Shown here piece after piece: positions 381-24,000 of a stretch of DNA of 24,000 nt. A program made the position numbers and the translations under genes. Position 1 is the stretch's first letter. Every line of letters begins with the position of its first letter. The notes below the pieces were generated by a model. The model did not search any database, was not told the DNA's origin, and was given only the letters and a program-made list of their open reading frames with translations. This DNA comes from Gammaproteobacteria bacterium AS21 (GTDB lineage: Bacteria; Pseudomonadota; Gammaproteobacteria; Pseudomonadales; Balneatricaceae), in the NCBI GenBank assembly GCA_038900335.1, contig JBBMRB010000001.1:290630-314629 (forward strand), given 5' to 3'.

Positions 381-410
381 CGACAGCTCATAAAGGCCAA
401 GGAAAATAAA

Positions 411-7899: not shown

Positions 7900-7927
7900 T
7901 TAAGAAGCCACAATCATGACTTCTTAA
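7900..7927 (-). terminator. Candidate weak intrinsic terminator downstream of purU
   Basis: TTAAGAAG (7900-7907) pairs with CTTCTTAA (7920-7927) across a 12-nt loop, 11 nt after the purU stop on the minus strand. It is followed there only by a short TTT. The stem is AT-rich, so support is weak. Confidence 0.3.
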
Positions 7928-7937
7928 TAATTAATCG

Positions 7938-8807
7938 TTATTTAAAGACGACTGTCTTATTACCATCAAGGAATACACGATGTTCAATGTGCAACTTAAC
8001 AGCCTTTGCCAAGGCAATAGTTTCTGTGTCACGCCCTATCGCCACTAAAGAGTCAGCACTATAAGTATGATCAACTACCTGCACAGCTTGTTCAATAATA
8101 GGGCCTTCATCTAAATCAGGCGTTACGTAATGAGCAGTAGCACCTATTAATTTAACGCCTCTTTCGTGTGCTTGATGATAAGGCTTTGCGCCTTTAAAGC
8201 CAGGCAAGAAAGAATGATGAATATTAATGGCTCTACCTTTTAACTGAGTACATAGGTTATCAGTTAATACTTGCATATAACGCGCTAATACCACTAATTC
8301 AGTACCACTTTCATCTACAATATCTAATAGCGCCAACTCTTGTTCGCGTTTATTCTCTTTCGTAATAGGCAGGTAGATAAAGCGAATCCCTTCTCTTTCG
8401 GCCATTGGTCGTAAATCTAAGTGATTAGAAACAATCGCTGTGACTTCCATATTGAGCTCGCCCTTGCGTAAACGATAAAGCAAATCATCTAAACAATGGT
8501 CGAATTTACTCACCATAATCATCACTTTTGATGCTTTACTTGCATCAAGTAAGCTCCACGTTAAATCCAAGCTTTCAGCTAACTCAGAGAACTGCTCTTC
8601 AAGGTCTTCTCTGGTACATTCACCTGCTTCAATATAACCGACAGCACGCATGAAAAAATGGTTGCTATCTGGATCATCGTATTGTGATAAAGCGCTGATA
8701 TAGCAGCCTCTTTCAGCTAAAAAACTTGTTACACTGGACACAATACCACTTTTAGCGGCGCAGCTAACTTTTAATATAAAATGATGATCGTTCTTAAGTT
8801 CTGTCAT
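7938..8807 (-). CDS. purU: Formyltetrahydrofolate deformylase
   Basis: 289 aa with an N-terminal ACT-like regulatory domain (ILKVSCAAKSGIVSSVTSFLAERGCYI). The C-terminal formyltransferase domain carries LARYMQVL, INIHHSFLPGFKGAKPYHQA, GATAHYVTPDLDEGPII. Confidence 0.93.
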   Translation of the reverse strand: MTELKNDHHFILKVSCAAKSGIVSSVTSFLAERGCYISALSQYDDPDSNHFFMRAVGYIEAGECTREDLEEQFSELAESLDLTWSLLDASKASKVMIMVSKFDHCLDDLLYRLRKGELNMEVTAIVSNHLDLRPMAEREGIRFIYLPITKENKREQELALLDIVDESGTELVVLARYMQVLTDNLCTQLKGRAINIHHSFLPGFKGAKPYHQAHERGVKLIGATAHYVTPDLDEGPIIEQAVQVVDHTYSADSLVAIGRDTETIALAKAVKLHIEHRVFLDGNKTVVFK

Positions 8808-9506
8808 GGTAAGCCTTATTAAATAATAGATGACGTTTTTTATATTTAAGCATTATATTGATATAGAAATTGACTAAACCCACTGGAAATATATCCAAAA
8901 AGTAACCTTTTTCATAAAAGTACAATGATTACAGCTCAAATAAAATAGCTAAGCTTTTATAATAAATGATGTCATAAATAACAAATAATAAAATATTGCA
9001 ATGCCAATACTAGTGCAGCACTTAATACCCTGTTATTTCATTAAGTTAATCAAATAAAATAGATCTCGATTCTAAGACATCAAAGACACTTATGAAAGTG
9101 CTATAAGATAAAAATACCATTTGAACGCCGCTCCTGCCTGCAGCTTAAGTTTGGTAGTTAACAAAATATAAAAGCGCACACCAACCTCACGCTATTACCT
9201 AGCTTGATGAGTGTGAAATAAGCATATATTAGTGATGCTTATGTATGCATTAGCGATTAAATAAAAATAACCAAATTGATGGTCAATAGACTCTATTTCA
9301 ACAACCAAGTTATTCATGCTGCATTAATACTCTTTATGTTTAATTAACTGATCATTAAAAAAACAAGCCAATTTGAATACATAACAATATTTTTTTAGAA
9401 CTTGGAATATCTGTATTTTGTAAACTACACTCAATCATGATGATGCAGTCGTTTTAGCAGTAACTTAATGTAAGTTTAACATGTCATTGAATAAGGATAT
9501 TGAATT

Positions 9507-11048
9507 ATGGGGCCGATGAATGATACAGCGAGAAGTGATGAGCAATTTCTAAAAATAATTAACAAGTCTAGAGGTATTATTGATTTTACCATGGACGGTA
9601 TAATTATTAGCTGTAACCAAGTTTTTTTAGATTGTCTAGGTTATACATTAGATGAAATACAAGGAAAGCATCAAAGTATCTTTTTTAATGAAGACTATAT
9701 AGAAAGCTCTGATTATGCTGTTTTTTGGCAACGCCTTAATCAAGGTGAAACTATTGAGGAAGGTGAAAACAAATACCTAGGTAAAAATGATAAAGAAGTA
9801 TTTATTAAAACCATTTTCAACCCTGTTTTAGACGACGATAAGCAACCTATTAAAGTCATCCAGTTTGCCAATGATATTACTGAACATAAATTAAAAAATG
9901 CTGAGCATGAAGGTTTATTAACCGCGATTAATAAATCTCAAGGCATCATTGAGTTCAATATGGATGGTACTGTCATTTCTGCAAATCAAATATTCCTTGA
10001 TATTATAGGCTACTCATTAGCTGAGATTAAGGGTTTTCATCACAACCTATTTTGCGAAGCCTCTTATGCTAACAGTGAAGAATACCAGCAGTTTTGGGCT
10101 AAGTTAAATCGTGGTGAATTTGATGCCGGTGAATACAAGCGTATCGCTAAAGACGGTTCAGAAGCCTTTATTCAAGCAACCTACAACCCCGTTTTTGACC
10201 TAAATAACAAACCGTTCAAAGTGATTAAGTTTGCAACAGATGTCACTGAACGCAAAATCACCAATGCCGAATTTGAATGCAAACTACAAGCGATCGACAA
10301 ATCCCAGAGCACTTTAGAACTCAATATGGATGGTATCATCGTTAGTGCTAACGAAAAATTTCTTAAAATCGTAGGCTATACCCTAGAAGAAATCGTTGGT
10401 GAGCACCATCAAATACTTTGTGACGATGAGTATGTAAAAAGTCATCGATATACAGATTTTTGGCAGAAAATAAGGCGTGGTGAATTTCAGTCCGGGGAGT
10501 ATAAGTGTATTGGCAAAAATGGTCGTGAAGCTTACATTCAAGCAACCTACAACCCAATATTTGATTTAAATAATAACCCTATCAAAGTGCTAAACATTGC
10601 CTCGGATGTGACTGAGAAAAAACGTCGCGAAAATGAAAATGCCAAGCAAGCGGCACTCATTATGGATATGTCTACTCCGGTGATGCGCCTTTGGGACAAT
10701 GTCTTATTGCTACCTATTATTGGTTTAGTTGATTCTAAACGAGTGCAGACAATCATGGAAGCTGCGCTACAAAACATTTTAGATCATCAAGCGAAATTTC
10801 TTATTTTAGATATTCAGGGCGTACCGGCGATCGACAGTGCAGTGGCTAATTATCTTATCAAAGTCACACAGGCAACTAAACTGATGGGGTGTCGCTGTAT
10901 TGTCACCGGTATTTCACCACAAATATCACAAGCTCTTGTTAATTTAGGTATTGATTTAGGTGACATACTAACCCAATCCACGTTAAAGGATGGTGTCAGT
11001 ATGTCATTAAAAGAAATGGGACTTAAATTGGGGAGTATTAATAGTTAA
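9507..11048 (+). CDS. rsbR: RsbR-like stressosome sensor protein: three tandem PAS domains plus a C-terminal STAS domain
   Basis: 513 aa with three units of about 122 aa (INKSxGIIxFxMDG...GYxxxEIxGxHxxxF...FWxxLxxGE...NPxxDxxxxPxKVxxxAxDxTExK). The C-terminal STAS domain resembles Bacillus RsbR (MSTPVMRLWDNVLLLPIIGLVDSKR, LILDIQGVPAIDSAVANYL, LMGCRCIVTGISPQISQALVNLGIDL). AAGGA RBS upstream. Confidence 0.88.
   Translation: MGPMNDTARSDEQFLKIINKSRGIIDFTMDGIIISCNQVFLDCLGYTLDEIQGKHQSIFFNEDYIESSDYAVFWQRLNQGETIEEGENKYLGKNDKEVFIKTIFNPVLDDDKQPIKVIQFANDITEHKLKNAEHEGLLTAINKSQGIIEFNMDGTVISANQIFLDIIGYSLAEIKGFHHNLFCEASYANSEEYQQFWAKLNRGEFDAGEYKRIAKDGSEAFIQATYNPVFDLNNKPFKVIKFATDVTERKITNAEFECKLQAIDKSQSTLELNMDGIIVSANEKFLKIVGYTLEEIVGEHHQILCDDEYVKSHRYTDFWQKIRRGEFQSGEYKCIGKNGREAYIQATYNPIFDLNNNPIKVLNIASDVTEKKRRENENAKQAALIMDMSTPVMRLWDNVLLLPIIGLVDSKRVQTIMEAALQNILDHQAKFLILDIQGVPAIDSAVANYLIKVTQATKLMGCRCIVTGISPQISQALVNLGIDLGDILTQSTLKDGVSMSLKEMGLKLGSINS
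9540..10622 (+). repeat. Intragenic tandem triplication (three PAS-encoding units of about 366 nt each)
   Basis: The protein-level repeat offsets are 123 and 122 aa. Units 2 and 3 still share an identical 20-nt DNA block, ATTCAAGCAACCTACAACCC, at 10170-10189 and 10536-10555 (offset 366 nt). Confidence 0.8.
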
Positions 11049-11443
11049 TGACTTCATTATCCCAAGGCAGCTTAGCATCACCCGATAATTCTTCTAACAT
11101 GACGACATATGTTACTAGCGATTGTTTAGTCTTTCCTGTTCAAGCAGAACTTTCAAAACAAGCGGCTCTTAACGTACAGGCGTTTATCTTAGATCAGGTG
11201 CACTCAAAGAGTTATAACGGCGTTATTATTGATTTATCAGGTGTTGAAGTCATAGATAGTGTGCTGTGGCAGGTCTTTGCCAACACTTGCGTGATGATCA
11301 ATATGTTGGGGTATAGAACCGTCATAACCGGTCTAAACCCAGGCGTTGTTGCTGCGATTATGGACATCAATGTCGATCTAACCAAGGTGATAACGGCAAT
11401 GGATATACAAGATGCCCTAAATATATTAACCACAAAAGACTGA
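11048..11443 (+). CDS. rsbS: RsbS-like single-domain STAS protein (stressosome scaffold / antagonist)
   Basis: 131 aa with a STAS core (GVIIDLSGVEVIDSVLWQVF...MLGYRTVITGLNPGVVAAIMDINVDL). Ser71 sits in the VIDS context, the equivalent of the phosphorylated Ser of Bacillus RsbS. The start overlaps the rsbR stop (TAATG). An alternative start is Met18 at 11099. Confidence 0.85.
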   Translation: MTSLSQGSLASPDNSSNMTTYVTSDCLVFPVQAELSKQAALNVQAFILDQVHSKSYNGVIIDLSGVEVIDSVLWQVFANTCVMINMLGYRTVITGLNPGVVAAIMDINVDLTKVITAMDIQDALNILTTKD

Positions 11444-11488
11444 TTAACAGATAAGCCTGTAATAATAGCAACGAAGGCTAGATAAAGT

Positions 11489-11899
11489 ATGACATTAGAC
11501 ACTCAAAAATCACTGAAATTTCAGGTATATGATGAAGTTGACGTCGCCTACGCTGCATTAGGTGCTAAAAAATACGCTCAAGCTATCGGTTTTAATAGCC
11601 CGTCTCAATACATGATATCAACCGCTGTTAGCGAGCTGGCCCGAAATATTTATGTTTATGCTAAAAAAGGTACGGTTTTATTAAATTATGTAGATGAAGA
11701 GTTCAAACTAGGAATGCAAGTTATCGCCGATGATTGCGGCCCCGGTATTGTTGATATTGAAAAAGCTTTACTAGATACCTACAGCACTGGTGGCACTATG
11801 GGCGTAGGTCTACCTGGCACTAAAAGATTAATGGATGAGTTCAAAATTGAATCTATAGTTGGTAAAGGCACAAAGGTAACGATAGTTAAATGGTTGTAA
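11489..11899 (+). CDS. rsbT: RsbT-like serine/threonine kinase (GHKL anti-sigma-regulatory-factor type)
   Basis: 136 aa, collinear with B. subtilis RsbT as I recall it (ISTAVSELARNIYVYAKKG, ADDCGPGIVDIEKAL, YSTGGTMGVGLPGTKRLMDEF, GKGTKVTIVKWL). Confidence 0.88.
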   Translation: MTLDTQKSLKFQVYDEVDVAYAALGAKKYAQAIGFNSPSQYMISTAVSELARNIYVYAKKGTVLLNYVDEEFKLGMQVIADDCGPGIVDIEKALLDTYSTGGTMGVGLPGTKRLMDEFKIESIVGKGTKVTIVKWL

Positions 11900-12477
11900 T
11901 GAATTCAAGTCAATTAGAATATTTTGTCGCTACACGATCACTTGAGTCACTAAATGGCGACGCAGCATTTATTGTTGAAGACAATGATGAGCTATTCATT
12001 TTTATCTTTGATGGCGCAGGACATGGTGAATCAGCACATAATATCGCCATAGTAGCGGTTGATTTTATAAAAAAAAACAGACAGCTCGATTTGGTAAATT
12101 TAATGAGTGCTCTGCATGACAAACTAAAAGGTAGTGACGGAGGCGTAGCTGTTATTGCTAAATTCAATATGATAACAAGGCAGCTATATTATGTTGGCAT
12201 AGGAAATATATTTCTTCGTGTTTTTAGTGAATCTTCAAAACGTGAAATTACTCAAGGAGGCGTCATTGGTTATCAAATACGTAGCCCTAAAGAGAAGTCA
12301 ATCGCAGTGGCGACAGGCAGTACCATTGTTTTTCATACTGATGGCATTACCAGTCGTTTTAATGAAAGCGACTACCCAAACATACTCTGGGATGATGTCC
12401 AGACAGTTTCACAAATACTACTTGATAAGTTTGGGAAGAATAATGATGATGCGACCTGTGCAGTTATACGTGTGTAA
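11890..12477 (+). CDS. rsbX: RsbX-like PP2C/SpoIIE-family phosphatase
   Basis: 195 aa with motifs NGDAAF, FIFDGAGHGESAH, VFHTDGI and NDDATCAVIRV, matching RsbX-type feedback phosphatases. It overlaps rsbT. The start may instead be the ATG at 11899, which would form a TAATG junction. Confidence 0.85.
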   Translation: MVVMNSSQLEYFVATRSLESLNGDAAFIVEDNDELFIFIFDGAGHGESAHNIAIVAVDFIKKNRQLDLVNLMSALHDKLKGSDGGVAVIAKFNMITRQLYYVGIGNIFLRVFSESSKREITQGGVIGYQIRSPKEKSIAVATGSTIVFHTDGITSRFNESDYPNILWDDVQTVSQILLDKFGKNNDDATCAVIRV

Positions 12478-12548
12478 TAACACTAAGACGTTAATTTTTG
12501 GCAATAGTTTTAAATCTCATATCTCACAATATTTTTGGGCTGTCTAAC

Positions 12549-15212
12549 ATGATTTCTCTAGGTACTATCTGCATAAATGATGAAGACAGTATTGTCCACA
12601 CCCGTAGTAAAATTCGCAGCCTATCAATCAATTTAGGCTTTAGTGCGATTGAAGCTACACGTCTTTCGACGACGACCTCTGAAGTTTGTTGGTTGCTGTT
12701 AGAGCAGCAGGCAAAAATTGAGGTTTATCTCCAGCAAACACAACAACAATATGCTTTGCTGTTAGTATTTAAAAGTAATATCGACGCTGTTGATTTAACT
12801 AAATTCCAAGGCCCTTTTAGTCAATTAGTTGCAGAAAAAACGAACAAAGATAGGATAAATATTAGGGCAGTAAAAAATATTATTAATCCAGGATTCGACC
12901 CAGACGAAAACTTCATTAATGAAAGTCAGCGCAAAATAGAGCAACTTAGTCGTGAAGATCTTGTCGGTGAACTAAAAGTCGCTATCAACCAAGCTGAAGC
13001 GGCGAATCAAGCTAAAAGTGACTTTCTGGCAAATATGTCCCATGAAATTCGCACGCCGATGAATGCCATTATCGGTATGTCTTACCTTGCTTTAAAAGGC
13101 AATTTAGATCCAAAACAACGTAATTATATTGAGAAAGTACATCGCTCAGGTGATAGTTTACTAGGGATTATTAACGATATATTAGATTTCTCTAAGATTG
13201 AAGCTGGCAAATTAGATATCGAAAAAATTAGTTTTAGAATTGAAGATGCATTTGATAATTTGGCTAATCTAGTAGGCCTTAAAGCAGAAGAAAAAGGCTT
13301 AGAATTACTATTTGATTTACCGACCAACCTGCCCGCTTTCTTAGTAGGCGACCCATTACGCTTAGGTCAGGTTTTAGTTAATCTTGGCAATAATGCGGTG
13401 AAATTTACTGATACAGGTGGTGAAATTAGAGTTAATGTCATCGTTAAAGAAGAAACAGACAGCTCTATCACATTACAGTTTTCTGTTTGTGATTCCGGTA
13501 TAGGGATGACGCCAGAGCAACAACAAAAATTATTTAAATCCTTCTCCCAGGCAGATACCTCAACTAGTCGAAAATACGGTGGTACCGGTTTAGGCCTCGT
13601 CATTTGTAAGAAATTGTCAGAATTAATGGGCGGTTCTATATGGGTTGAAAGCGAGGCGGGACAAGGAAGTACGTTTCACTTTACCTCTAAGTTTAAAAAA
13701 CAATCAGGGGAAATATCAAACACGCGTCAAAAAGCAGAAACATTGGAATCAATACGTGTGCTTATAGTTGATGACAACGCCTCTGCTCGAGAAATTTTAA
13801 CCTCTATTGTTGAGAGCTTCGGCCTACACGTTGACTCCTGTCAAAGCGGCGAAGAAGCGTTATCTATGATTAAAACTGCCTCTACAATAAGTCCCTACAA
13901 ACTAGTATTATTAGATTGGAAAATGCCAAATATGAGTGGCGTTGAAGTTAGTAGAGCACTGCAAAATGACACCTCGCTCGCTCAATGCCCTGATATTATT
14001 ATGATTACAGCGTATGGTCGTGAAGATGCTATTGAATCCATCAAAGACATAAGTATTCAAGGATTTCTCACTAAACCTGTTACAGCATCGAGTCTACTTG
14101 ATGCCATACTTATCACAATGGGAAAAGACACCGCTGTTAATTCACGTAAGGATACCAGTAAAACACAGTCATCAGCATCTATTGCCAAGCTAGTCGGTGC
14201 TAAGATTTTACTAGTTGAAGATAACGAGCTCAATCAAGAGTTAGCACTGGCTCTATTAGAAAATAATGGCTTAATAGTAGAGATTGCTAACAATGGTCAG
14301 CAAGCTGTAGAAAAAATAACAAATTCTGATTTTGACGGCGTATTGATGGATCTTCAAATGCCCATTATGGATGGCTTTGAAGCGACCAAAATAATTCGCG
14401 AGCAAGCTAAGTATAAAGATTTAGCTATTATCGCTATGACGGCAAATGCAATGGCCGGCGATAGAGAGAGAGTTATCGACGCCGGGATGAATGATCATAT
14501 CGCTAAGCCTATTAATGTCAATGACATGTTTGCCACTATGTCTAAGTGGATTAGTTCTAAAAACCCAATAACATCACCGCTTAAAACAGATGAAACGGAT
14601 AGTATCAACGGCGTTAATTTACCTGATATTGCACAGCTAAATATTGACGTTGGCCTTAACTCTACACAGGGTAATCAGGCATTATATCAAAAATTATTAG
14701 TGAAATTTTATATCAGCAACAGCACCTTTTCCCAGTCTTTTAGCCAGGCATTATCAGCAGATGATCAATCGACTGCGCTTCGACTTGCGCACACTCTCAA
14801 AGGCGTTGCGGGGACGATAGGCGCACAACAACTTCAAAGTGTTGCCGGCACTCTAGAAAATGCCTGTGAAAATAAAGCGACTAAAGCTGAACTTATGTTA
14901 TTACAAGAACAGGTAGAGATAGCGCTGGAACCTATCTTACAAGGATTATCCAATTTTGACCCCAATGACACTATCGTTAATGATAAAACACAGACACTAG
15001 ATTTAGTGGCGTTAAAAATAATACTGATTAAATTAAGAAATTTAATCGAAGAAGATGACGCTGAAGCAACCTTTATTATCCATGAACTCAATGCACTGCC
15101 AGGTATTGCGCAACATAGCCACACATTGCGCAAGCTTACTAATGCTATTGATAGTTATGATTTTGATGAAGGACTTGAGCTGCTAGCTGAACTTGAGGAA
15201 TTAGTTATCTAA
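12549..15212 (+). CDS. Hybrid sensor histidine kinase: N-terminal RsbT-like degenerate domain, HisKA, HATPase_c, two receiver domains, Hpt
   Basis: The H-box [11 protein letters not shown] has its His codon at 13041. N-box [13 protein letters not shown]1 DSGIGM and G2 GGTGLGL are present. REC1 carries VLIVDDN and [12 protein letters not shown]2 carries ILLVEDN and [12 protein letters not shown]. The Hpt motif is [13 protein letters not shown]. There are no TM segments, so it is probably cytoplasmic. I call the ATG at 12549 as the start; the ORF track uses the TTG at 12498. Confidence 0.9.
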
Positions 15213-15226
15213 TTTAAGAAGGTAAT

Positions 15227-16279
15227 ATGGATATCAACAACAAAAAACAAACTATACTAGTGGTTGATGACACCCCTGAAAACATTGATATTTTAAGTGG
15301 TGTGTTAAGGAATAAATACAAGGTAAAAGCGGCGCTTAATGGTGATAGAGCATTAAAAATAGCGCGTACAGCACCCTATCCTTCTATGATTTTATTAGAC
15401 ATAATGATGCCAGGTATCGACGGTTATGAAGTGTGCCGTCAATTAAAGGCTGACCCGCAGACATCCAAAATACCTATTATTTTTATCACTGCTAAAAATC
15501 AAGATGGCGATGAGAAAATCGGCCTTGAGCTAGGCGCAGTAGACTATATTACCAAACCTTTTAGTCCTTCAATAGTCGAGGCAAGAGTACATACCCATTT
15601 ATCATTATACGATCAAAACCTAGCACTTGAACACCAAGTCAATCAACGCACTAAAGAATTACTCGCTACGCGCTTGCAAATTGTTCGTATATTAGGCCGT
15701 GCCGCCGAATTTAAAGATAATGAAACAGGCTTACATGTTATTCGCATGAGCCATTATGCCAGGCTTATTGCTGAAAAATTAGGTAATAGTGCCTCTTGGG
15801 GGGACTTGATTTTCAGTGCTGCACCATTACATGATATCGGCAAGATCGGCATTCCCGATCACATTCTATTAAAACCTGGTAAGCTGACCGATGATGAATG
15901 GGCTATTATGCGTAAACACCCAGAGTTTGGTGCTGAAATTATTGGTAAAAATGATTCTGAAATTCTGATGACCGCCAAGGAAATAGCGCTAACTCATCAC
16001 GAACGATGGGATGGTAGCGGCTATCCGAACCAGCTAAAGGGTGAGGAAATTCCTATCAGTGGACGTATAATTATGATTGCAGATGTATTTGATGCCCTCA
16101 CCACGCAAAGGCCTTATAAAAAAGCATGGTCGGTTGAAGATGCTGTCAAATTGATAAATGATAGTGCGGGCACTCATTTTGACCCCAGTTTAGTTTCCAT
16201 TTTCAATGAAGTACTGCCCTCTATACTGGCTATAAAAGAAAGTTACGCAGAATCTACAGCGGGTACTCATACCTCTTAA
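15227..16279 (+). CDS. Response regulator with HD-GYP domain (RpfG-family c-di-GMP phosphodiesterase)
   Basis: 350 aa. The REC domain has ILVVDDTPEN, MILLDIMMPGIDG and ITKPF. The HD-GYP domain has PLHDIGKIGIPD and HHERWDGSGYP. It starts 14 nt after the kinase stop. Confidence 0.92.
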   Translation: MDINNKKQTILVVDDTPENIDILSGVLRNKYKVKAALNGDRALKIARTAPYPSMILLDIMMPGIDGYEVCRQLKADPQTSKIPIIFITAKNQDGDEKIGLELGAVDYITKPFSPSIVEARVHTHLSLYDQNLALEHQVNQRTKELLATRLQIVRILGRAAEFKDNETGLHVIRMSHYARLIAEKLGNSASWGDLIFSAAPLHDIGKIGIPDHILLKPGKLTDDEWAIMRKHPEFGAEIIGKNDSEILMTAKEIALTHHERWDGSGYPNQLKGEEIPISGRIIMIADVFDALTTQRPYKKAWSVEDAVKLINDSAGTHFDPSLVSIFNEVLPSILAIKESYAESTAGTHTS

Positions 16280-16356: not shown

Positions 16357-18543
16357 TTAACTGAGCACTGACTCTGGTTCAAACTGATCGCCATTGGCAC
16401 AGTAATCTAAAAATAATTTTAAATCCTCTATCTCTAATGGTTTAGCGATATGAAACCCCTGTGCATAGTCGCATTGCATATCACCTAGCAATTCAAGTAA
16501 AGCCTGCGTTTCTACACCTTCACCAACGACTTTCATCTTTAATGAATGTGCTAAATCAATCATCGCCTTGATAACAGTATCGCTGTTATCTCCCCTATTT
16601 AGTAAGAAACTTTTATCTATCTTTAATTCTTTAACGGGCAACATAATCAAATAGGAAAAGGATGAGTAACCTGTACCGAAATCATCAATGGACGCGCTAA
16701 AGCCTTTACTGGTTAGTTGGTTTAATATTTTTATAGCCTGCTCAGGCTTCTCCATTGCCGTTGTTTCAGTTATTTCTAAATTTATACTTGTAGGCGATAT
16801 ATTTAATGTTTTACATACGCCCTCTAAGATACTGGGCATTTCAGGCTGACTGAATACCCGCCCCGACAGATTGATGGAGACACAAAAGTTGCGATTAGCT
16901 TTAAACATAGGTCGGCATTGTATACAAGCGCGGCGGAAAACCCATTGGGTTAACTCATAAATACTGCCATTTCGCTCGCAAATAGGAATAAATTCGACAG
17001 GAGAAATAAGTCCTAATTGCGGGTGCTGCCAGCGAACTAACGCTTCAACTTTATTCACTCGCCCTGAATTAACATCTAAAATGGGTTGGTAGAGAACAAA
17101 AAGTTGGTTGTTTTCTATCGCGCTCTTAAAATCACGGCCTAATTGCGATTGACGTCTCAATTGTGAATCTGTTTCTGGGCTATATAATGTATAGTTAATA
17201 TCAGATCGTTTTGCGTGATACATCGCTAAATCAGCATTTTTGACCAGTGTACAGGCATCTTCACCATGTTGCGGATAAATCGCGGTCCCGATATTTGCAG
17301 TAATAAGAATACTTTTAACATCTTGGTTATTACAAATAACAGGCGCTTGTAATACTTTAATAAATTTTTGTATTATTGACTCACCATCATGATTACTAGC
17401 CACTGCAAGTAATGCATAAAACTCATCTCCTCCCATTCGGGCAACAGTATCAGTTGAGCGCAAAACACTAGATAGTCGTTTAGCGACTTCACAAAGTACG
17501 AGATCGCCAATTTGATGGCCATAATTATCATTTACCTCCTTAAACTTGGTCAGATCAATACTGGCAACTATAAATCGAGTGTTATTACGTCGGCCTAATT
17601 TTATATATTGCTCTAGACGATCCTGAAACAAGGTTCTATTAGGTAAAGAGGTTAGTGCATCGTGAAGCGCAAGGTGCTTAAGCTCTTCATTGGCTTTTGA
17701 AAGTGATTTAGTTCGAGACAATACACGCTCTTCAAGCTTGCGTTTTTGTGACTCAATGACGGCCATTTTATCGACAATTGCGATCCGCATTTGGTTAAAG
17801 TTAGTCGCTAGTAAATACAGTTCATCGTCATGTTTAGCATTGATGACATTATCAAGGTCAGCAGAGTTTTTAAGTGTTTCAAGCTTATCGGGGTTAAGCG
17901 CACTGGCGGCATTGGCCAATGCTTCCAAAGGCTTTGCAACAAACTTGTTGACGAAAAACAAAAAGAATAACCACAGTGCTGCACTCTTGATGATCGAAAA
18001 AATAATGATTAATAGAAAACTGTATTTAACACGATCAATAATGATATTAACGTCAGTATAAATATGACCAAAACCAATTAATGTATAGGGGCCATTCGCA
18101 TTTTCTAGACGCTCTAAAGGAAAGGCGTATTCAAACAAAGTTTGGCGTTTAGTTGAATTAACTTGTGCTAATTCAACTTCCTTCATATTGGGGTTTGCCA
18201 AGTTTTCTTCTAGATAAATGATGCTATCATCACTAACCACATCTCCCATTGATGCAATTACTTGGTTGCGTTCAGAAACTATTTTAATACCGGAGACTGC
18301 ATCAATTTTCATCATCCCAGAGAGAATCACCTCTAGTTGCGATGTATCAAAAGACCAAATGGAATTCATAATACTGCCTTTAAATGTTGTCTCTATATTA
18401 TTGATTTGATTGAAGACTTCTCTTTTCACATCGCGGTATTCCGAGTTCAATTGAAGTGCCGTTATCAATACAGCAACAATAAGATAACAACCAAATACGT
18501 AACGCAGTAAACGCAGGCCTATGCCATTTTTAAATTTATTCAT
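16357..18543 (-). CDS. Membrane-bound GGDEF-EAL c-di-GMP turnover protein with periplasmic loop and HAMP
   Basis: 728 aa with two TM segments flanking a periplasmic region of about 140 aa, then a HAMP-like linker. The GGDEF motif is intact and has an RxxD I-site five residues upstream (RSTDTVARMGGDEF). The EAL domain has intact EALVRW, DDFGTGYSS, KIDKSF and EGVET motifs. Confidence 0.92.
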   Translation of the reverse strand: MNKFKNGIGLRLLRYVFGCYLIVAVLITALQLNSEYRDVKREVFNQINNIETTFKGSIMNSIWSFDTSQLEVILSGMMKIDAVSGIKIVSERNQVIASMGDVVSDDSIIYLEENLANPNMKEVELAQVNSTKRQTLFEYAFPLERLENANGPYTLIGFGHIYTDVNIIIDRVKYSFLLIIIFSIIKSAALWLFFLFFVNKFVAKPLEALANAASALNPDKLETLKNSADLDNVINAKHDDELYLLATNFNQMRIAIVDKMAVIESQKRKLEERVLSRTKSLSKANEELKHLALHDALTSLPNRTLFQDRLEQYIKLGRRNNTRFIVASIDLTKFKEVNDNYGHQIGDLVLCEVAKRLSSVLRSTDTVARMGGDEFYALLAVASNHDGESIIQKFIKVLQAPVICNNQDVKSILITANIGTAIYPQHGEDACTLVKNADLAMYHAKRSDINYTLYSPETDSQLRRQSQLGRDFKSAIENNQLFVLYQPILDVNSGRVNKVEALVRWQHPQLGLISPVEFIPICERNGSIYELTQWVFRRACIQCRPMFKANRNFCVSINLSGRVFSQPEMPSILEGVCKTLNISPTSINLEITETTAMEKPEQAIKILNQLTSKGFSASIDDFGTGYSSFSYLIMLPVKELKIDKSFLLNRGDNSDTVIKAMIDLAHSLKMKVVGEGVETQALLELLGDMQCDYAQGFHIAKPLEIEDLKLFLDYCANGDQFEPESVLS

Positions 18544-19397
18544 CTATTGTGTTCTAGCCCATATTTCATTTGTAACTGAGCGATAGTGCCATCAGCAATT
18601 AATTCATTCAGAGCCTTACGCATAGGGGCAAGAATCCTGTCATCAATTTTATTATTAAATGCATAACCCATATTCGAATATTTTAATACATGGACTATTT
18701 CAAATTTATTAGCATCAATATTAGCTTTCTTAAACAGAATTTGTGATGTGGCGTGGGCATAACTCATGGCATCAATTCTGCCTGAATCAAGTTTTTTGAC
18801 AATACTGAGCCCTGAGTTAAGTTTATCTAAAGAGTCGGGCTGTACTCCTTCACTAAGCAGTAGCTGTTCCCCTATATCATCTCTGATAACACCAATTGTT
18901 AAGCCTTGAAGATCATTAATATGCTGAACCGATAAGTGGCTAAATTTTGGCGCTATCACGGCGACTATGTTAACTGCGAAAGGCCCTACAAATTTCATTT
19001 CTTTTAATCGTTTTTTAGAATAAGTAGTCGAAAAGAGCGCGGTTTGAGGGTCGTTCAATAGCTGATTATAACCACGTGCCCAAGGGTATATTTTCAATTC
19101 AACTTTATCGCGTGAAACGCCTAATTTATCAAAGATGCTTAATAATATCTCTACTCCAATCCCTGTTATTTCACCGGTTATAGGGTCTTTATAATTAAAT
19201 GGCGGATACTCTTCAGTCACCCAATTTAAATTTTCAATGGCACTAACAATCTGTTTAGGATCATCTAAATCACTACTTGCGATAGCCTGATGGCTAAACA
19301 TTATTGAGAGTATAAATGTGGCGATAACCCTGCTTATCGCAGCCTTGTTGGGGTAGCTATATATCATCGTTCTAAATCTCTTGTACTGCGCAAACAT
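18540..19397 (-). CDS. Periplasmic solute-binding protein, family 3 (amino-acid/polar-ligand type), no transporter partner in view
   Basis: 285 aa with a signal-peptide-like N-terminus (AISRVIATFILSIMFSHQAIA/SS) and SBP_bac_3-like features (WVTEEYPPFNY, GIGVEIL, WARGY, TIGVIRDDIGEQLL). Its stop overlaps the GGDEF-EAL start (ATGA, 18540-18543). The start may be Met11 at 19367. Confidence 0.75.
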   Translation of the reverse strand: MFAQYKRFRTMIYSYPNKAAISRVIATFILSIMFSHQAIASSDLDDPKQIVSAIENLNWVTEEYPPFNYKDPITGEITGIGVEILLSIFDKLGVSRDKVELKIYPWARGYNQLLNDPQTALFSTTYSKKRLKEMKFVGPFAVNIVAVIAPKFSHLSVQHINDLQGLTIGVIRDDIGEQLLLSEGVQPDSLDKLNSGLSIVKKLDSGRIDAMSYAHATSQILFKKANIDANKFEIVHVLKYSNMGYAFNNKIDDRILAPMRKALNELIADGTIAQLQMKYGLEHNR

Positions 19398-19902: not shown

Positions 19903-20883
19903 ATGGCTTCAACCTTAAAAGCCGATGCTGATGGCGTCATCACACTGTCCTTTTTGCTGTTACCTGAGTATGCGATGATATCGTTATTGTCAGCCATTGA
20001 GCCGCTACGCATCGCTAACCGACTTGCAGGCAAAGAGTTATATCGCTGGCAGTGCTTTAGTAAAGATGGTCTGCCTGTCGTTGCTAGCAATTTAATGATG
20101 TTACAAAATCATTTATCTATAGATGAGCCTACCCTGCCTAAAAACTTAATTGTTAATGCCAGTTTTCACCCTGAAAAATATTGCGATGATCAAGCGATTA
20201 TTAAATGGCTGCGAAAATTACAGCGCAATGACTGCATAATTGGTGCGTTAGACTCCGGCTGCTTTATGTTGGCAAAAGCAGGTTTACTTGCTCACAAGTG
20301 TATTACTATGCACTGGGAAGCCATTCCTATCTTTAAAGAGCAGTATCAGCGACAAAAAATCAGTACTCAGTTGTTTGTTATTGATAAGCACTTAATGACC
20401 TGCGCTGGTGGCACAGCAGCCTCAGATATGGTGCTATATTTAATAGGGCAAGATCATGGCCAAGCACTGGTATTAAACATATGCGATCAATTCATAAAGA
20501 AAAACATCAGACAGCACTCAGATCATCAGCAAATTGATTTGGCAAAAAGCCTCAATATTCATCACCCAAGGTTATTAAACGTTTTAAGGCTGATGGCGAT
20601 AAATATTAGCAATCCAATGACAATTGAGCAGTTAGCAAATTGTGTGCACATATCATTAAGACAACTAGAGCGCTTATTTAAGCAGCATTTTAAATGCACA
20701 GCAAAACAGTATTACCTACAACTAAGGCTTGAGCGTGCTCAACAATTACTGAATGAATCAGACCTCAATATTTATGATATCGCATTGATCACAGGCTTTA
20801 GCTCAAGCTCCCACTTTTGTCGCAGTTATCGCCAACATTTTGCAATAACCGCGAGTCAGCAGCGTGCCTTAAAAAGTAATTGA
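19903..20883 (+). CDS. GlxA-family (DJ-1/PfpI-like N-domain plus AraC HTH) transcriptional regulator, CdhR/GbdR-like
   Basis: 326 aa. The N-terminus has LLLPEYAMISLLSAIEPLRIAN and LDSGCFMLAKAGLL (GATase1-like). The C-terminal AraC double HTH has IEQLANCVHISLRQLERLFKQHF and IYDIALITGFSSSSHFCRSYRQHF. Confidence 0.88.
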   Translation: MASTLKADADGVITLSFLLLPEYAMISLLSAIEPLRIANRLAGKELYRWQCFSKDGLPVVASNLMMLQNHLSIDEPTLPKNLIVNASFHPEKYCDDQAIIKWLRKLQRNDCIIGALDSGCFMLAKAGLLAHKCITMHWEAIPIFKEQYQRQKISTQLFVIDKHLMTCAGGTAASDMVLYLIGQDHGQALVLNICDQFIKKNIRQHSDHQQIDLAKSLNIHHPRLLNVLRLMAINISNPMTIEQLANCVHISLRQLERLFKQHFKCTAKQYYLQLRLERAQQLLNESDLNIYDIALITGFSSSSHFCRSYRQHFAITASQQRALKSN

Positions 20884-20902
20884 ATGACTGAGCTAATTAA
20901 TT

Positions 20903-22093
20903 TTAAGCCAGCTCTCGCTCCAGTACTCTAATTCGTGATAGCAACTCATCCCTATCAACGTAACAACCTTGTAGGTGCCTGTGACCTTGCTCAAGACTAA
21001 ATGCATTGCGTGAATGCAGTACTCGACGATTATCAAAAACCAGTAGATCACCAGCATTCAGGCGATGAAAAAATTGGAAGCGCTCCTGCCTTGCCAATAG
21101 CATAAAACGACGATAGCCTGCGTAAATAGCCTGCATTTTATCCGCGGCTATAGCAATGGGTCCACGTAAGAAATTAGCTAAGCGAACCTCTACCACCTCG
21201 CCTTGATTATTGACAGAAATGGCTGGGCTATCAAAGCGATAATCTGAAGCTTTATCTTTGTTATAAAACGACATTGATAAAGTCGTTAGTGCAATAAAAT
21301 CATCGGGATAGTTTTCGCGAATATACTGCGCTATTTTAAAGCCATCGACTAAAATGGATTCCCCGCCTTGAGCATCATTAACTAAACAGTGCAAAAACTG
21401 TAGGCCAGGTTGCAGTTCTCTTGTTGGCAAATCAGTGTGCAGTGGCAGCCTTAACGTAGTGTAGGCAGCTGAATTTGCGTTGTTTTTAGCAACAACATCA
21501 AAAATGGTACCAAAATTTGTCTCTCTGATAAAAGAGATACGCTCGGCGACTTTTTTTACTGTGTTTTCACTAGTATCAACATTTTTTACAATACTAATAC
21601 CATAATCCCTTACCTCATATAACCAATTAAGTAATGCTTGGCTATCACTCATGATATCCTGATATTGGTGAGTGGGTAAATATTGGCTTATTTGTTGTCT
21701 ATCCCAAAGTGTAGGCTTTAACTGGCGAGCTTCTCTGGATGCTTTCGTGTAGCAATGCTGCTCTAACCAACCGGCTAAGTAACGGCTATGATGATTTTCA
21801 AAATCCCATGTGATTTGCAGCTCATGCTCTGGTGATATATTGGCATTACTAGGTTTTATCGTAAACGGGACATCACATATCTCAAAAATTTGCTCACGTG
21901 TGAGTGAGGTAATACATTGCTCACAGTGGCAGTTATCCCTAAGCCAAAGATAATGGTATTCGCTTTGCGCACCATCATCCCATTCAATAATCAGTTTATC
22001 ATCAAGGCAATTGACACTAATGGGAAGCTTGTTCTTCTCATAAATACTATAACCGACCATGGCTGTTGTGCTGTTATCTGTCGTGACTGGCAT
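20903..22093 (-). CDS. Fe(II)/2-oxoglutarate dioxygenase of the gamma-butyrobetaine / trimethyllysine hydroxylase family (DUF971 N-domain plus TauD fold)
   Basis: 396 aa, collinear with human BBOX1/TMLHE as I recall them. The Cys3His zinc-site context is WLRDNCHCEQC...NHH. Other shared motifs are AERISFIRETNFG, SAAYTTLRLPLHTDLP (HxD iron ligands), PGLQFLHC, GGESILVDGF, GDLLVFDNRRVLHSRNAF and RHLQGCYVDRDELLSRIRVL. AAGGGGA RBS upstream. Confidence 0.88.
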   Translation of the reverse strand: MPVTTDNSTTAMVGYSIYEKNKLPISVNCLDDKLIIEWDDGAQSEYHYLWLRDNCHCEQCITSLTREQIFEICDVPFTIKPSNANISPEHELQITWDFENHHSRYLAGWLEQHCYTKASREARQLKPTLWDRQQISQYLPTHQYQDIMSDSQALLNWLYEVRDYGISIVKNVDTSENTVKKVAERISFIRETNFGTIFDVVAKNNANSAAYTTLRLPLHTDLPTRELQPGLQFLHCLVNDAQGGESILVDGFKIAQYIRENYPDDFIALTTLSMSFYNKDKASDYRFDSPAISVNNQGEVVEVRLANFLRGPIAIAADKMQAIYAGYRRFMLLARQERFQFFHRLNAGDLLVFDNRRVLHSRNAFSLEQGHRHLQGCYVDRDELLSRIRVLERELA

Positions 22094-22126
22094 AACGATT
22101 CCCCTTCATAATTAATGAGCTAATCA

Positions 22127-22170
22127 TAAAGTGTCGCCTAGTTATTTTGTTGTGTTATTTCGACACTTTA
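22127..22170. promoter_or_regulatory. Perfect 10-bp inverted repeat upstream of the dioxygenase gene (candidate operator or 5'-UTR hairpin)
   Basis: TAAAGTGTCG (22127-22136) is the exact reverse complement of CGACACTTTA (22161-22170), with a 24-nt T-rich spacer. It lies 34-77 nt upstream of the start codon at 22093. Confidence 0.3.
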
Positions 22171-22287
22171 TTGCATAAATCGGTCATATTAATCTCTGCT
22201 TGTTAATCTATTATTTAAACGAGATTGTCCAAATAATAGGACTGATTTTTTGATAGTCACCAGTAAAGTGATGACAGACAATGAATG

Positions 22288-22308
22288 TACCTCTGCTGTA
22301 CAGAGGTA
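22288..22308 (-). terminator. 8-bp stem hairpin downstream of the aldolase gene (candidate terminator or attenuator between aldolase and dioxygenase)
   Basis: TACCTCTG-CTGTA-CAGAGGTA is a perfect 8-bp stem with a 5-nt loop, about 65 nt past the aldolase stop on the minus strand. No T-tract follows, so terminator function is uncertain. Confidence 0.3.
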
Positions 22309-22373
22309 TCTCAATTTACATGTTGTGCTGCTTGTTAAAGATTGAGGTCAAGGGCTAATGTTATGAGGTGAGA

Positions 22374-23399
22374 TTAAAGGCTGATCGCTGCGATAAAACC
22401 TGCTACATCTTGCTCTTTCGTTGCCCAGCTCGTTACCAGACGATAACAATCTTGCCCCTCAACAGGCCAGTGATATAAATCATAACCTTGTGCTTTTGCA
22501 CTGTTGTATTGCTCACTAGTGATAGAAATAAACAATTGATTAGTTTGCGCCGCGAAATAACAGCTTCCCAAGCCCTTTTCAGCGATATTTTTAGCGACTA
22601 ATGCTGCCATATTATTGGCATGACAAGCGTTATCTAACCACAAGTTATTGTCAAAATAGCCAAGTAACTGAGCAGATAAAAAGCGCATCTTTGAGGCCAG
22701 ATGGCCCGTCTGCTTGGCATGTGCGCGAATACCAGATGCCAGTAATGGGTTAAATACGACTAAAGCTTCTGCTCCAAAAGTACCATTTTTACTCGCCCCA
22801 AAAGTCATGGCATCAACACCAGCACGACAACTAAGATCCGCTGGATGACAGTCAAAATGTGCAACAGCGTTAGCAAACCTGGCCCCATCGACAAAGTACT
22901 TTAGATTATGTTGCTGACAAATCTTACCCAGTTCATTCATTTGCTCAATACTATAACAGCGACCAAACTCTGTCGCTTGGGTGATCGCCAATGCTGCTGG
23001 TGGCGGGCTATGGATATCATTGATATCAACACCTTGCAGATACTCTTGAAGCCGTGATGCACTAATATTATCTAAATCCGCGCCGACAGTACTCAAGCGA
23101 GCACCACCGGTAAACAGTTGTGGCGCTGTGCTTTCTGATACCGCTAAGTGGCTATTTGGATGGCAGATAATGCTTTGTCTGCCATGACACATCTGCCCTA
23201 GTGCTAAGCAATTAGCCGCTGTACCGGTCAGTACAGGGAAAACATATGCTTGCTGGCCAAAAAGTGTAGAGACACAATCATTGAGCTTGGCTGTTAAAGC
23301 ATCATCACCGTAAGGTAGATCATAACCATTTTGAGCATGCTGCTGTACATACTGCCAAATTTCGGGGCTTGCAGGTGCGGTATTATCCGATAGAAACAT
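22374..23399 (-). CDS. ltaE: PLP-dependent low-specificity threonine aldolase family protein (beta-hydroxy-alpha-amino-acid aldolase)
   Basis: 341 aa with the threonine-aldolase / beta-eliminating-lyase fold pattern (YGDD, TGTAANCLAL, DGARFANA). The PLP-lysine context is MTFGASKNGTFGAEALV. AAGGA RBS 8 nt upstream. The symbol reflects family only, not a proven substrate. Confidence 0.8.
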   Translation of the reverse strand: MFLSDNTAPASPEIWQYVQQHAQNGYDLPYGDDALTAKLNDCVSTLFGQQAYVFPVLTGTAANCLALGQMCHGRQSIICHPNSHLAVSESTAPQLFTGGARLSTVGADLDNISASRLQEYLQGVDINDIHSPPPAALAITQATEFGRCYSIEQMNELGKICQQHNLKYFVDGARFANAVAHFDCHPADLSCRAGVDAMTFGASKNGTFGAEALVVFNPLLASGIRAHAKQTGHLASKMRFLSAQLLGYFDNNLWLDNACHANNMAALVAKNIAEKGLGSCYFAAQTNQLFISITSEQYNSAKAQGYDLYHWPVEGQDCYRLVTSWATKEQDVAGFIAAISL

Positions 23400-23538
23400 T
23401 TTTAAATCCTTAGTGATAACGATAGCTGACGATTAATATTTAGCTAAATGTAAAAAATCGTTGAAGGTTGTTGATCATTGTCTATATTCCCCATAATATA
23501 TTAATTATACAGTTGAATAACAAGGGGAGTTTAAGCTT

Positions 23539-24000
23539 ATGATTATAAAAACGGCAACCGCCTCACCTAATGGTCTATTAGTGACATGGGCCGATGGCAG
23601 TGACCAGAATTTTCCATGGCTTTGGGTTATGGACCACGGTGATGATGAAAACAGTGTCAATAGTAAAACACTACAGCGAAATATTGATACTTTCGCGCTC
23701 ACTCAAAGCTTAAAAGGTGAACAGGTTACTTTGCTTGATCAACAGATCATTAGCATCCGTTGGAATAGTGGTGAGCAAACCAGCATCTCTTGCTTACGCC
23801 TTGCGCAAGTCACTGGCCGTACATTGAGTGATGAGCAACTCTCAGCCGCCTCATATAAAATATTATGGCAGCAAGATACTATGCTCGATGAAATCCCTAG
23901 CATTGATTATCAGGATGTTCTCGCTGATGATCAAGGTGTACTGAACTGGTTAAATAATATCGATAAGTATGGGTTTTGTGTTGTCAATGGCACGCTAGCG
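23539..24000 (+). CDS. Second gamma-butyrobetaine / trimethyllysine hydroxylase-family dioxygenase, 3'-truncated by the window edge (absent from the supplied ORF track)
   Basis: Hand translation from the ATG at 23539 (RBS AAGGGGAG at 23522-23529) gives 154 codons open to the window end: MIIKTATASPNGLLVTWADGSDQNFPWLWVMDHGDDENSVNSKTLQRNIDTFAL...ILWQQDTMLDEIPSIDYQDVLADDQGVLNWLNNIDKYGFCVVNGTLA. It is collinear with the N-terminal third of the 20903-22093 protein (LIIEWDDG...YLWLRD, LLNWLYEVRDYGISIVKNV). It is divergent from the aldolase gene. Confidence 0.8.
   Translation, partial: MIIKTATASPNGLLVTWADGSDQNFPWLWVMDHGDDENSVNSKTLQRNIDTFALTQSLKGEQVTLLDQQIISIRWNSGEQTSISCLRLAQVTGRTLSDEQLSAASYKILWQQDTMLDEIPSIDYQDVLADDQGVLNWLNNIDKYGFCVVNGTLA

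Follow-up and report, generated by a model that had tools for sequence, protein, structure and literature searches.

Two juxtaposed gene modules and a possible trimethyllysine-to-carnitine route in Gammaproteobacteria bacterium AS21

Background

Can a marine gammaproteobacterium convert trimethyllysine into carnitine? The question is raised by the last four genes in a stretch of 24,000 nucleotides from Gammaproteobacteria bacterium AS21 (GenBank assembly GCA_038900335.1, contig JBBMRB010000001.1, positions 290,630 to 314,629 of the forward strand), which we call the window: two Fe(II)/2-oxoglutarate (2OG) dioxygenases, here named DioxA and DioxB, a pyridoxal phosphate (PLP) enzyme of the L-threonine-aldolase family, and a GATase1-like AraC regulator. 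An original prediction, made from the letters alone, had read these genes as a possible counterpart of the eukaryotic carnitine pathway. Here we present a computational follow-up, which finds that the four genes are two juxtaposed modules and not one unit. Our favoured interpretation, held tentatively and at close to an even call, is a composite island that scavenges methylated basic amino acids and includes a complete bacterial trimethyllysine-to-carnitine route.

Protein breakdown yields trimethyllysine in abundance; it is also a metabolite of kelp and plants (the laminine of kelp is free trimethyllysine) and a risk marker linked to trimethylamine N-oxide. In eukaryotic carnitine biosynthesis it is processed by trimethyllysine hydroxylase (TMLH, TMLHE), a 3-hydroxy-trimethyllysine aldolase (for example mouse Tha1 or a fungal Gly1-type threonine aldolase), ALDH9A1 and the gamma-butyrobetaine hydroxylase BBOX1. 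In the open-access full-text literature, we found no bacterial trimethyllysine hydroxylase, 3-hydroxy-trimethyllysine aldolase or trimethyllysine-to-carnitine route; nor did we find there a gene-level account of how aerobic bacteria dispose of free trimethyllysine, one rhizosphere paper merely correlating trimethyllysine with metagenome-assembled genomes (MAGs). Prokaryotes are explicitly stated to lack the trimethyllysine-to-carnitine pathway in two papers (PMC11016064, PMC8085414).

Results

Gene layout

Gene identities, family placements, conserved residues and synteny were read directly from the sequence. The four open reading frames (ORFs) of the original prediction, with their coordinates and strands, were borne out by the ORF list and translations, and their families agree with Pfam and NCBIfam. 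The genes and the elements between them lie in the window as follows.

19903..20883, + strand: GATase1-like AraC regulator (GbdR/CdhR type), 326 aa, with HTH_18, HTH_AraC and a weak DJ-1/PfpI domain
20903..22093, - strand: DioxA, Fe(II)/2OG dioxygenase, predicted gamma-butyrobetaine hydroxylase, 396 aa, GBBH-like_N plus TauD
22126..22186, - strand: candidate operator in front of DioxA, where a conserved block overlaps a perfect inverted repeat of 11 nt
22288..22308, - strand: terminator-like hairpin in the aldolase/DioxA gap, 9-bp stem with 4 GC pairs, from a consensus scan
22374..23399, - strand: L-threonine-aldolase-family PLP enzyme, predicted 3-hydroxy-trimethyllysine aldolase, 341 aa, PF01212
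23471..23524, + strand: promoter/operator-like conserved block near the DioxB start, inside the 139-bp divergent intergenic region
23539..24000, + strand: DioxB, Fe(II)/2OG dioxygenase, predicted trimethyllysine 3-hydroxylase, first 154 of 375 codons

The full-length DioxB (375 aa) and 10 kb beyond position 24000 were read from a 164-kb public contig identical to the window (L001; loci are cited by L numbers and single proteins by P numbers), where the gene occupies L001:7428-8555. Past DioxB lie a BetI-like TetR regulator, a four-gene ATP-binding cassette (ABC) importer of the Lys/Arg/Orn type, a dimethylargininase (DDAH) gene, a second TetR that is 47% identical to the first, a flavin mononucleotide (FMN) reductase and a LysR regulator. 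On the Lys/Arg/Orn model the binding protein of the importer reaches 211 bits, and it matches the solved cationic-amino-acid-binding, HisJ and LAO proteins at about 150-160 bits. The island DDAH matches that of P. aeruginosa over its full length (334 bits) and retains the C-terminal catalytic Cys. The nearest named relatives are Oceanospirillaceae and Aliamphritea. Scans with Rfam and for tRNAs gave no match.

The first module consists of DioxB and the divergent aldolase, and the second of DioxA and the AraC regulator. The original prediction had placed all of these genes under the AraC regulator; that regulator turns out to be the conserved partner of DioxA alone, and DioxB and the aldolase travel with the BetI-like TetR that lies outside the window.

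The DioxB dioxygenase

The two dioxygenases are paralogous, as had been proposed, and since they are 29% identical they are distant paralogues. By hidden Markov model (HMM) score, DioxB is closest to TIGR02410 (TMLD, 248.9 bits), followed by the BBOX (234.4) and TmpA (226.6) models. TMLD is also the best model across the whole DioxB clade, whose members score 259-275 bits and so straddle its equivalog cut-off of 268.3 bits, which is why some of them have been automatically named trimethyllysine dioxygenase and others have not.

The human TMLHE sequence used for comparison is treated as a checked lead: on TIGR02410 it reaches 518 bits, and every published residue falls at its expected number. 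With this sequence, the likeness to TMLHE that the original prediction had noted for segments of both dioxygenases does hold, human TMLHE having NSKTHQRSLDT and AERISLIRETIYG. For DioxB, the phylogeny and the inspection of cage residues that it had proposed also came out on the side of TMLH: a neighbour-joining tree places TMLHE as the sister of the DioxB clade, and DioxB keeps the substrate residues of the TMLH type.

These residues are known from mutagenesis of TMLH, in which H242/D244/H389 bind iron, R391/R398 bind 2OG, Y217/W221/Y234 form an aromatic cage, and D231 and N334 contact the substrate (reviewed in PMC7764450). In a MAFFT alignment, the iron triad H199/D201/H340 and the 2OG arginines R342/R349 of DioxB match those of TMLH; its cage, F173/W177/Y191, differs by one conservative Tyr-to-Phe change; and D188 and N286 correspond to D231 and N334. 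None of these positions (iron, 2OG, cage, D188 and N286) varies among 28 bacterial homologues. The aspartate is of particular interest, as D231 of TMLH is Asn191 in BBOX and is thought to give specificity by binding the alpha-ammonium group (PMC7764450); at this position DioxA and the bacterial proteins named BBOX have Ser or Thr. DioxB and TMLHE also have in common an NNYDR motif and a 4-residue deletion, neither of which occurs in BBOX1, TmpA or DioxA.

A further test, independent of that TMLHE sequence, was a search of 1.84 billion representative proteins using a DioxB-clade profile, built from P0001 (89% identical to DioxB) and its alignment. The profile recovered its own clade first and then a tier of longer proteins, of which ten were sampled; nine pass TIGR02410, at 293-353 bits, and the DioxB clade therefore appears to be a bacterial sister of genuine TMLH. 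By these sequence comparisons, the nearest relatives of DioxB outside its own clade are TMLH, and not BBOX or TmpA. An AlphaFold2 model of P0001 (pLDDT 86.8) has TmpA (TM 0.84) and BBOX1 (TM 0.77) as its closest folds, and TmpA is the best match for DioxB in the PDB by both sequence and fold. The four characterised members of the subfamily (BBOX, TMLH, TmpA and DfmD) all act on trimethylammonium substrates. Taken together, DioxB is predicted to be a trimethyllysine 3-hydroxylase.

The aldolase

The enzyme encoded divergently from DioxB matches PF01212 (Beta_elim_lyase) at 152 bits and the solved L-threonine aldolases 7yvr, 1v72 and 5vye at 247 bits, and its GASKNG is aligned to the GATKNG of the solved enzymes, which is the PLP Schiff-base lysine motif GA(S/T)KNG. 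The DioxB-aldolase divergent pair is present in four genomes, those of the window, L006, L011 and L094, with other neighbours that differ. The original prediction had made conservation of the arrangement a point to check: the pair itself recurs in three related genomes, and DioxA beside that pair does not recur in the closest relatives.

In a neighbour-joining tree, the aldolases that are paired with close DioxB genes form one clade, with unpaired aldolases as its sister clade, while the aldolases of L025 and L045, whose DioxB partners are distant homologues, fall into a clade of their own. The pairing must therefore have originated two or more times, and this speaks for a functional link. Efficient cleavage of 3-hydroxy-trimethyllysine has been shown for threonine aldolases, among them mouse Tha1 and E. 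coli LtaE (PMC11016064), so many DioxB loci would have no need of a dedicated aldolase. The island enzyme is predicted from its family and pairing to be a 3-hydroxy-trimethyllysine aldolase, giving glycine and 4-trimethylaminobutanal.

Gene neighbourhoods of DioxB relatives

Synteny was drawn from exact-protein look-ups, of which the one for the A. hakodatensis protein P0010 gave no record, and from a metagenome scan that added 80 loci; a scan of a genome collection with the aldolase gave 2 loci. Context was counted over 51 non-redundant DioxB-family loci having at least 3 kb of flank, and aldehyde dehydrogenases were sought in 86 DioxB loci. The closest relatives are arranged as follows, with the positions of DDAH-like genes beside DioxB homologues in these and other loci given last.

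L006 (Oceanospirillaceae MAG): ABC importer, TetR, DioxB, divergent aldolase; without DioxA, AraC or DDAH
L011: binding protein, ATPase, TetR, DDAH, DioxB, divergent aldolase
L094 (Aliamphritea ceti): DDAH, 253-aa ORF without a Pfam match, ABC importer, TetR, DDAH, DioxB, divergent aldolase
L012: DioxB, TetR, ABC importer, with an arginase-family gene and a GbdR-like AraC upstream; without the aldolase
DDAH-like genes near DioxB homologues: L003:11148-11939; L016 at about 6304; L011:2986-3747; L094:1553-2314 and 7778-8539

A BetI-like TetR and a polar-amino-acid ABC permease each occur in 14 of the 51 loci, an SBP_bac_3 binding protein occurs in 12, and a threonine-aldolase-family gene within 2.4 kb of DioxB in 7. 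The aldolase of L088 was counted by its tblastn match only, its ORF call being unreliable owing to an antisense-ORF artefact of high-GC loci; the largest non-DioxB cluster from de novo ORF clustering was the same artefact and was discarded.

The gene 3' of the paired aldolase varies. It is an AstE/AspA-family deacylase in L006:11118-12116, and a DUF1761 protein with a class-III aminotransferase in L011:6289-8386 and L094:11079-13164; in the window DioxA and the AraC regulator stand there instead.

Among more distant homologues, a PhyH-family dioxygenase follows the DioxB homologue in L004, L045 and L052, and a TMADH-like FMN/FAD flavoprotein (Oxidored_FMN) in L004, L029, L033, L034, L036 and L087; in L045:2-940, a BHMT-like homocysteine S-methyltransferase adjoins an aldolase. 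These PhyH, TMADH-like and BHMT-like loci may be other catabolic variants for betaine amino acids. A marine subgroup (L053-L058 and L064, 41% identical to DioxB) is accompanied by an MFS transporter, a luciferase-like monooxygenase, an OpuAC-type glycine-betaine binding protein and a 346-aa unknown protein, and its substrate probably differs too.

DioxA and its AraC regulator

DioxA scores 394.7 bits on TIGR02409 (BBOX), 325.6 on TmpA and 248.6 on TMLD. BBOX is thus the top model, 69 bits ahead of TmpA, yet the score stays below the equivalog cut-off of 414.75; the Pseudomonas sp. L-1 protein named gamma-butyrobetaine hydroxylase reaches 472.8 bits on the same model and is 51% identical to DioxA. 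Counterparts in Marinomonas, Marinobacterium and Neptunomonas that carry the annotation gamma-butyrobetaine dioxygenase are 60-66% identical to it, and an NCBI protein of Gammaproteobacteria bacterium AS21 is 100% identical.

At the level of single residues, the Zn site of DioxA, Cys-x-Cys-x2-Cys...His (WLRDNCHCEQC...H), aligns to Cys38/Cys40/Cys43/His82 of BBOX1, its cage is F/F/Y against Y177/W181/Y194, and the HTD...H triad is kept, so that the iron ligands are intact as the original prediction had said. At the carboxylate-binding positions of BBOX1, Asn191 and Asn292, DioxA has Ser and Ala-Asn (motif ANFLRG). The same Ser and Ala-Asn are seen in all aligned bacterial proteins named gamma-butyrobetaine dioxygenase, and the change therefore looks like a bacterial variant and not a loss.

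The neighbourhoods of DioxA orthologues are informative as well. In Marinobacterium aestuarii (L092), the orthologue is followed by a convergent AraC gene, a BCCT transporter, carnitine dehydrogenase, BKACE, a second AraC and a 4HBT thioesterase, and in Neptunomonas antarctica (L093) a DioxA-AraC pair has BKACE and carnitine dehydrogenase at a distance of 8 kb. Since pairs of orthologue and AraC sit in such carnitine-catabolic clusters, DioxA is most likely a genuine BBOX, that is, a hydroxylase converting gamma-butyrobetaine to L-carnitine. No carnitine dehydrogenase genes lie within 10 kb of the pair in the window.

The AraC regulator of the window matches HTH_18 at 79 bits, and its DJ-1/PfpI domain, at 25.6 bits, falls just under the cut-off of 26.6. 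GbdR is its best NCBIfam model, at 317.5 bits against a cut-off of 480, and it is therefore a member of the family and not GbdR itself. It is 57-59% identical to the AraC genes that are convergent to the DioxA orthologues of M. aestuarii and N. antarctica, and 33-34% identical to the second, CdhR-like AraC found beside BKACE and carnitine dehydrogenase there. By these comparisons, DioxA and AraC are a putative self-contained gamma-butyrobetaine-to-carnitine module, in which AraC is DioxA's own predicted regulator, distinct from the CdhR-like one.

Intergenic regions

Upstream of DioxA, an inverted repeat, ATAAAGTGTCG/CGACACTTTAT, is found at 22126-22136 and 22161-22171, and an alignment shows the block (T)TGATGCAATAA..TGTCGA to be common to the window, L092 and L093; the region 22126-22186 is a candidate operator. 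Upstream of DioxB, TTGATCAT...CATAATATATTnATTATACAnTTGAATAACAAGG is kept in an alignment of the window, L006 and L011, whose proteins are just 63-80% identical, and we regard 23471-23524 as a candidate binding site of the adjacent BetI-like TetR. There are sigma-70-like matches on both strands of the divergent intergenic region, and as the promoter scan gave 15 against 14.1 in shuffled sequence, single calls carry no weight.

The aldolase and DioxA are separated by 280 bp. The hairpin in this gap has a poor T-tail, and the region has no more such sites than expected from shuffled sequence; the hairpin is a weak hint that the two genes may be separate transcription units, a reading that agrees with DioxA not adjoining the aldolase in relatives.

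Discussion

Proposed pathway

If the favoured interpretation is correct, the Lys/Arg/Orn-type ABC importer would take up N-epsilon-trimethyllysine together with methylarginines, the canonical DDAH splitting dimethylarginine into citrulline and dimethylamine. DioxB would hydroxylate trimethyllysine at C3, and the aldolase would cleave the resulting 3-hydroxy-trimethyllysine into glycine and 4-trimethylaminobutanal, the adjacent BetI-like TetR probably acting as the repressor of both genes. Oxidation of 4-trimethylaminobutanal to gamma-butyrobetaine would fall to an aldehyde dehydrogenase encoded elsewhere, and from gamma-butyrobetaine DioxA, switched on by its cognate GbdR/CdhR-type AraC activator, would make L-carnitine. 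The carnitine could then be converted to glycine betaine by carnitine dehydrogenase and BKACE, or be kept as an osmolyte. Every substrate in this scheme, the regulation and the regulator ligands, the unlinked dehydrogenase and the fate of carnitine are predictions from homology and gene context. Trimethyllysine is the best candidate substrate because of the juxtaposition of the two modules, the Lys/Arg/Orn type of the importer and the residues specific to TMLH; moreover, a single oxidation of the predicted product of the DioxB-aldolase pair would yield gamma-butyrobetaine, the substrate of the neighbouring DioxA. The DDAH and the TetR paralogue suggest a broader theme, the use of methylated basic amino acids from degraded eukaryotic proteins. 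Of the trimethyllysine-to-carnitine idea as originally put forward, the core withstood the computational tests, namely that trimethyllysine or a close analogue is the substrate of a TMLH-like hydroxylase, an aldolase for beta-hydroxy amino acids and a BBOX-like hydroxylase; the single unit and the linked dehydrogenase did not.

Compared with the eukaryotic pathway, the island has the same three protein families, in the predicted pathway order. DioxB keeps the iron, 2OG and cage residues of TMLH along with Asp231 and Asn334, DioxA keeps the Zn site, triad and cage of BBOX, and the aldolase belongs to the threonine-aldolase family that supplies the 3-hydroxy-trimethyllysine aldolase activity. 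However, the island is bacterial and probably catabolic or scavenging instead of biosynthetic; it would be fed by ABC import and not by intracellular protein turnover; its dehydrogenase is unclustered, its regulators are a TetR and an AraC, and DioxB is without the N-terminal Zn-binding cysteines. The second module resembles Pseudomonas-type gamma-butyrobetaine and carnitine catabolism in DioxA itself, in the orthologue clusters with BCCT, carnitine dehydrogenase and BKACE, and in an AraC like CdhR and GbdR, but in AS21 the pair is detached from the carnitine dehydrogenase genes and set beside the TMLH-like gene and aldolase. Its AraC also belongs to an orthologue group distinct from that of the CdhR-like neighbour.

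Three other systems share part of this logic. TmpA is of the same subfamily and fold as DioxB, and in the TmpA/TmpB system, too, hydroxylation primes a bond (C-P there, C-C here) for a second enzyme; the cleavage partner in the island is, however, a PLP aldolase and not an HD oxygenase, and DioxB has NNYDR and Asp where TmpA has NNRSS and Asn. Guanitoxin GntD and GntG carry out beta-hydroxylation of a cationic amino acid followed by cleavage by a threonine-aldolase-family enzyme, but that system is biosynthetic, DioxB falls in the BBOX/TMLH subfamily, and the island aldolase scores 62.6 bits on the GntG model against a cut-off of 230. Finally, the island DDAH is a full-length close homologue, with its catalytic Cys, of the enzyme used by P. 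aeruginosa for methylarginine utilisation. In the island its neighbours are a TetR paralogue, a basic-amino-acid importer and the TMLH-like gene, and DdaR, the P. aeruginosa regulator, is not present.

Alternative explanations

Several findings weigh against the trimethyllysine-to-carnitine route. DioxB lies below the TIGR02410 cut-off (248.9 against 268.3 bits), is nearly equidistant from the BBOX and TmpA models by HMM score, and is 28% identical to human TMLHE; enzyme activity is known for no bacterial member of its clade. Around distant homologues there are genes for an OpuAC binding protein, an MFS transporter, and TMADH-like, PhyH and BHMT-like proteins, contexts so different that substrates across the DioxB family probably differ as well, and the inference of trimethyllysine should rest on the subclade studied here only. 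Of the closest relatives (L006, L011, L094 and L012), all have DioxB, some have the aldolase and none has DioxA, so the link from the aldolase product to BBOX rests on the gene order of one genome, and the full route to carnitine is specific to the AS21 arrangement. As for the connecting enzyme, the original prediction had allowed that an aldehyde dehydrogenase might lie past position 24000, but there is none within the next 10 kb, and a PROSITE-motif scan of all ORFs in the 86 DioxB loci gave one match, 8 kb away in L064. The DDAH linkage, too, is left unexplained by trimethyllysine as the substrate, which has no need of that enzyme: a DDAH-like gene is present in 5 of the 51 loci, is in an operon with DioxB in alphaproteobacterial L003 and L016, on the same strand and 36-50 bp downstream of it, and is found in at least two copies around the importer of A. 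ceti.

This linkage lends some weight to an alternative with the same logic and another substrate, in which DioxB, the aldolase and DDAH paralogues would act on a methylated guanidino or other cationic amino acid (asymmetric dimethylarginine, or homologues such as trimethylornithine or dimethyllysine), with DioxA as an unrelated neighbour. DioxB would carry out the beta-hydroxylation, the aldolase would free glycine and a shortened aldehyde, and loss of the methylated head group would be due to a DDAH-like or arginase-family enzyme. Besides the tight spacing in L003 and L016, it could account for the DDAH between TetR and DioxB in L011 and L094 and the further copy in A. ceti, and for the arginase-family gene two genes upstream of DioxB in L012; an importer of the Lys/Arg/Orn type would suit it, and aromatic cages can bind methylguanidinium too, as in Tudor domains (PMC7764450). 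We nevertheless consider it unlikely. A canonical-type DDAH (334 bits) already turns dimethylarginine into citrulline, which makes a hydroxylation and retro-aldol route unnecessary; L006 keeps importer, TetR, DioxB and aldolase with no DDAH within 10 kb; all characterised members of the subfamily use a trimethylammonium substrate; and DioxB shares the cage and the Asp/Asn constellation of TMLH. The narrower proposal that DioxB, the aldolase and the DDAH-like enzyme make up one undescribed pathway for methylated guanidino amino acids, such as the dimethylarginines, strikes us as decidedly improbable; if true, DioxB would be the first BBOX/TMLH-subfamily member acting on a substrate other than a trimethylammonium compound.

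The four genes could also be neighbours by chance, with DioxA and AraC serving exogenous gamma-butyrobetaine only, an ordinary threonine aldolase, DioxB acting on another betaine, and no flow of metabolites between them. That DioxA and AraC are an autonomous module elsewhere would fit this, as would the hairpin and 280-bp gap between aldolase and DioxA and the absence of the connecting dehydrogenase from the island. The unpaired aldolases P0134, P0140 and P0133 (49-52% identical; loci L008-L010), our negative control, likewise lie in housekeeping neighbourhoods, a further point against the carnitine route. We nevertheless do not think chance probable: the divergent pair is conserved in four genomes with differing other neighbours; pairing re-arose with the other aldolase clade in L025 and L045, and is seen in 7 of 51 loci, when by a rough estimate a once-per-genome gene would fall within a few genes of a given gene well under 1% of the time; and the predicted product of the pair directly precedes what DioxA would use. 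A phosphonate system, with one or both dioxygenases being TmpA-like 2-(trimethylammonio)ethylphosphonate hydroxylases, draws on substantial TmpA scores (325.6 for DioxA, 226.6 for DioxB) and on TmpA being the best PDB match of DioxB. Both scores are, however, far below the TmpA cut-off of 400, TmpA is the top model for neither protein, and the orthologues of DioxA belong to carnitine clusters. Within 10 kb on either side there is neither an HD oxygenase of the TmpB/PhnZ type nor a phosphonate transporter, the sole HD protein near the island being a REC-HD-GYP signalling protein. Past position 24000, where the original prediction had suggested looking for an aldehyde dehydrogenase, a BCCT or ABC betaine-type transporter or a TmpB/PhnZ-like HD oxygenase, there is an ABC importer of the Lys/Arg/Orn type and neither the dehydrogenase nor the HD oxygenase. 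The caution originally raised, that flanking genes might signal a phosphonate substrate, is answered by this context, which excludes the TmpA alternative; we rejected the TmpA/TmpB reading on scores and context, and rate it as extremely improbable.

Significance

The enzymes of the island are of known families and would do known chemistry. If the trimethyllysine-to-carnitine route is real, what would be new is the first prokaryotic TMLH and a dedicated 3-hydroxy-trimethyllysine aldolase. Eukaryotic TMLH has been reported hard to produce, and the island would offer soluble bacterial enzymes for L-carnitine biocatalysis, as well as candidate biosensors in a trimethyllysine-responsive TetR and a gamma-butyrobetaine-responsive AraC. 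A bacterial sister clade would also bear on the origin of the eukaryotic carnitine pathway. For annotation, the automatic label "trimethyllysine dioxygenase" around the 268-bit cut-off is backed by context in one subclade only.

Other genes of the window

Directly adjoining the island, an SBP_bac_3 binding protein (18540-19397, - strand) shares 4 bp with the beginning of a CHASE5/HAMP-GGDEF-EAL protein (16357-18543, - strand); the pair looks like a solute-binding protein coupled to cyclic di-GMP turnover. Before it, at 9507-16279 (+ strand), lies a signalling operon encoding PAS/STAS and STAS proteins, a HATPase_c_2 kinase, a SpoIIE phosphatase, a hybrid histidine kinase (HisKA-HATPase-2xREC-Hpt) and a REC-HD-GYP protein, which would be a partner-switching module feeding a cyclic di-GMP phosphodiesterase. 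The roughly 700 bp at 8808-9506 are free of genes and fall in the window's lowest-GC kilobase (0.31 over 9001-10000), and a PurU-type formyltetrahydrofolate deformylase (ACT plus Formyl_trans_N) is encoded at 7938-8807 (- strand). The window starts, at 18-2160 (+ strand), with the tail of an ABC ATPase and two ABC-3 permeases of Znu/Mnt-type metal transporters, which are unrelated to the island.

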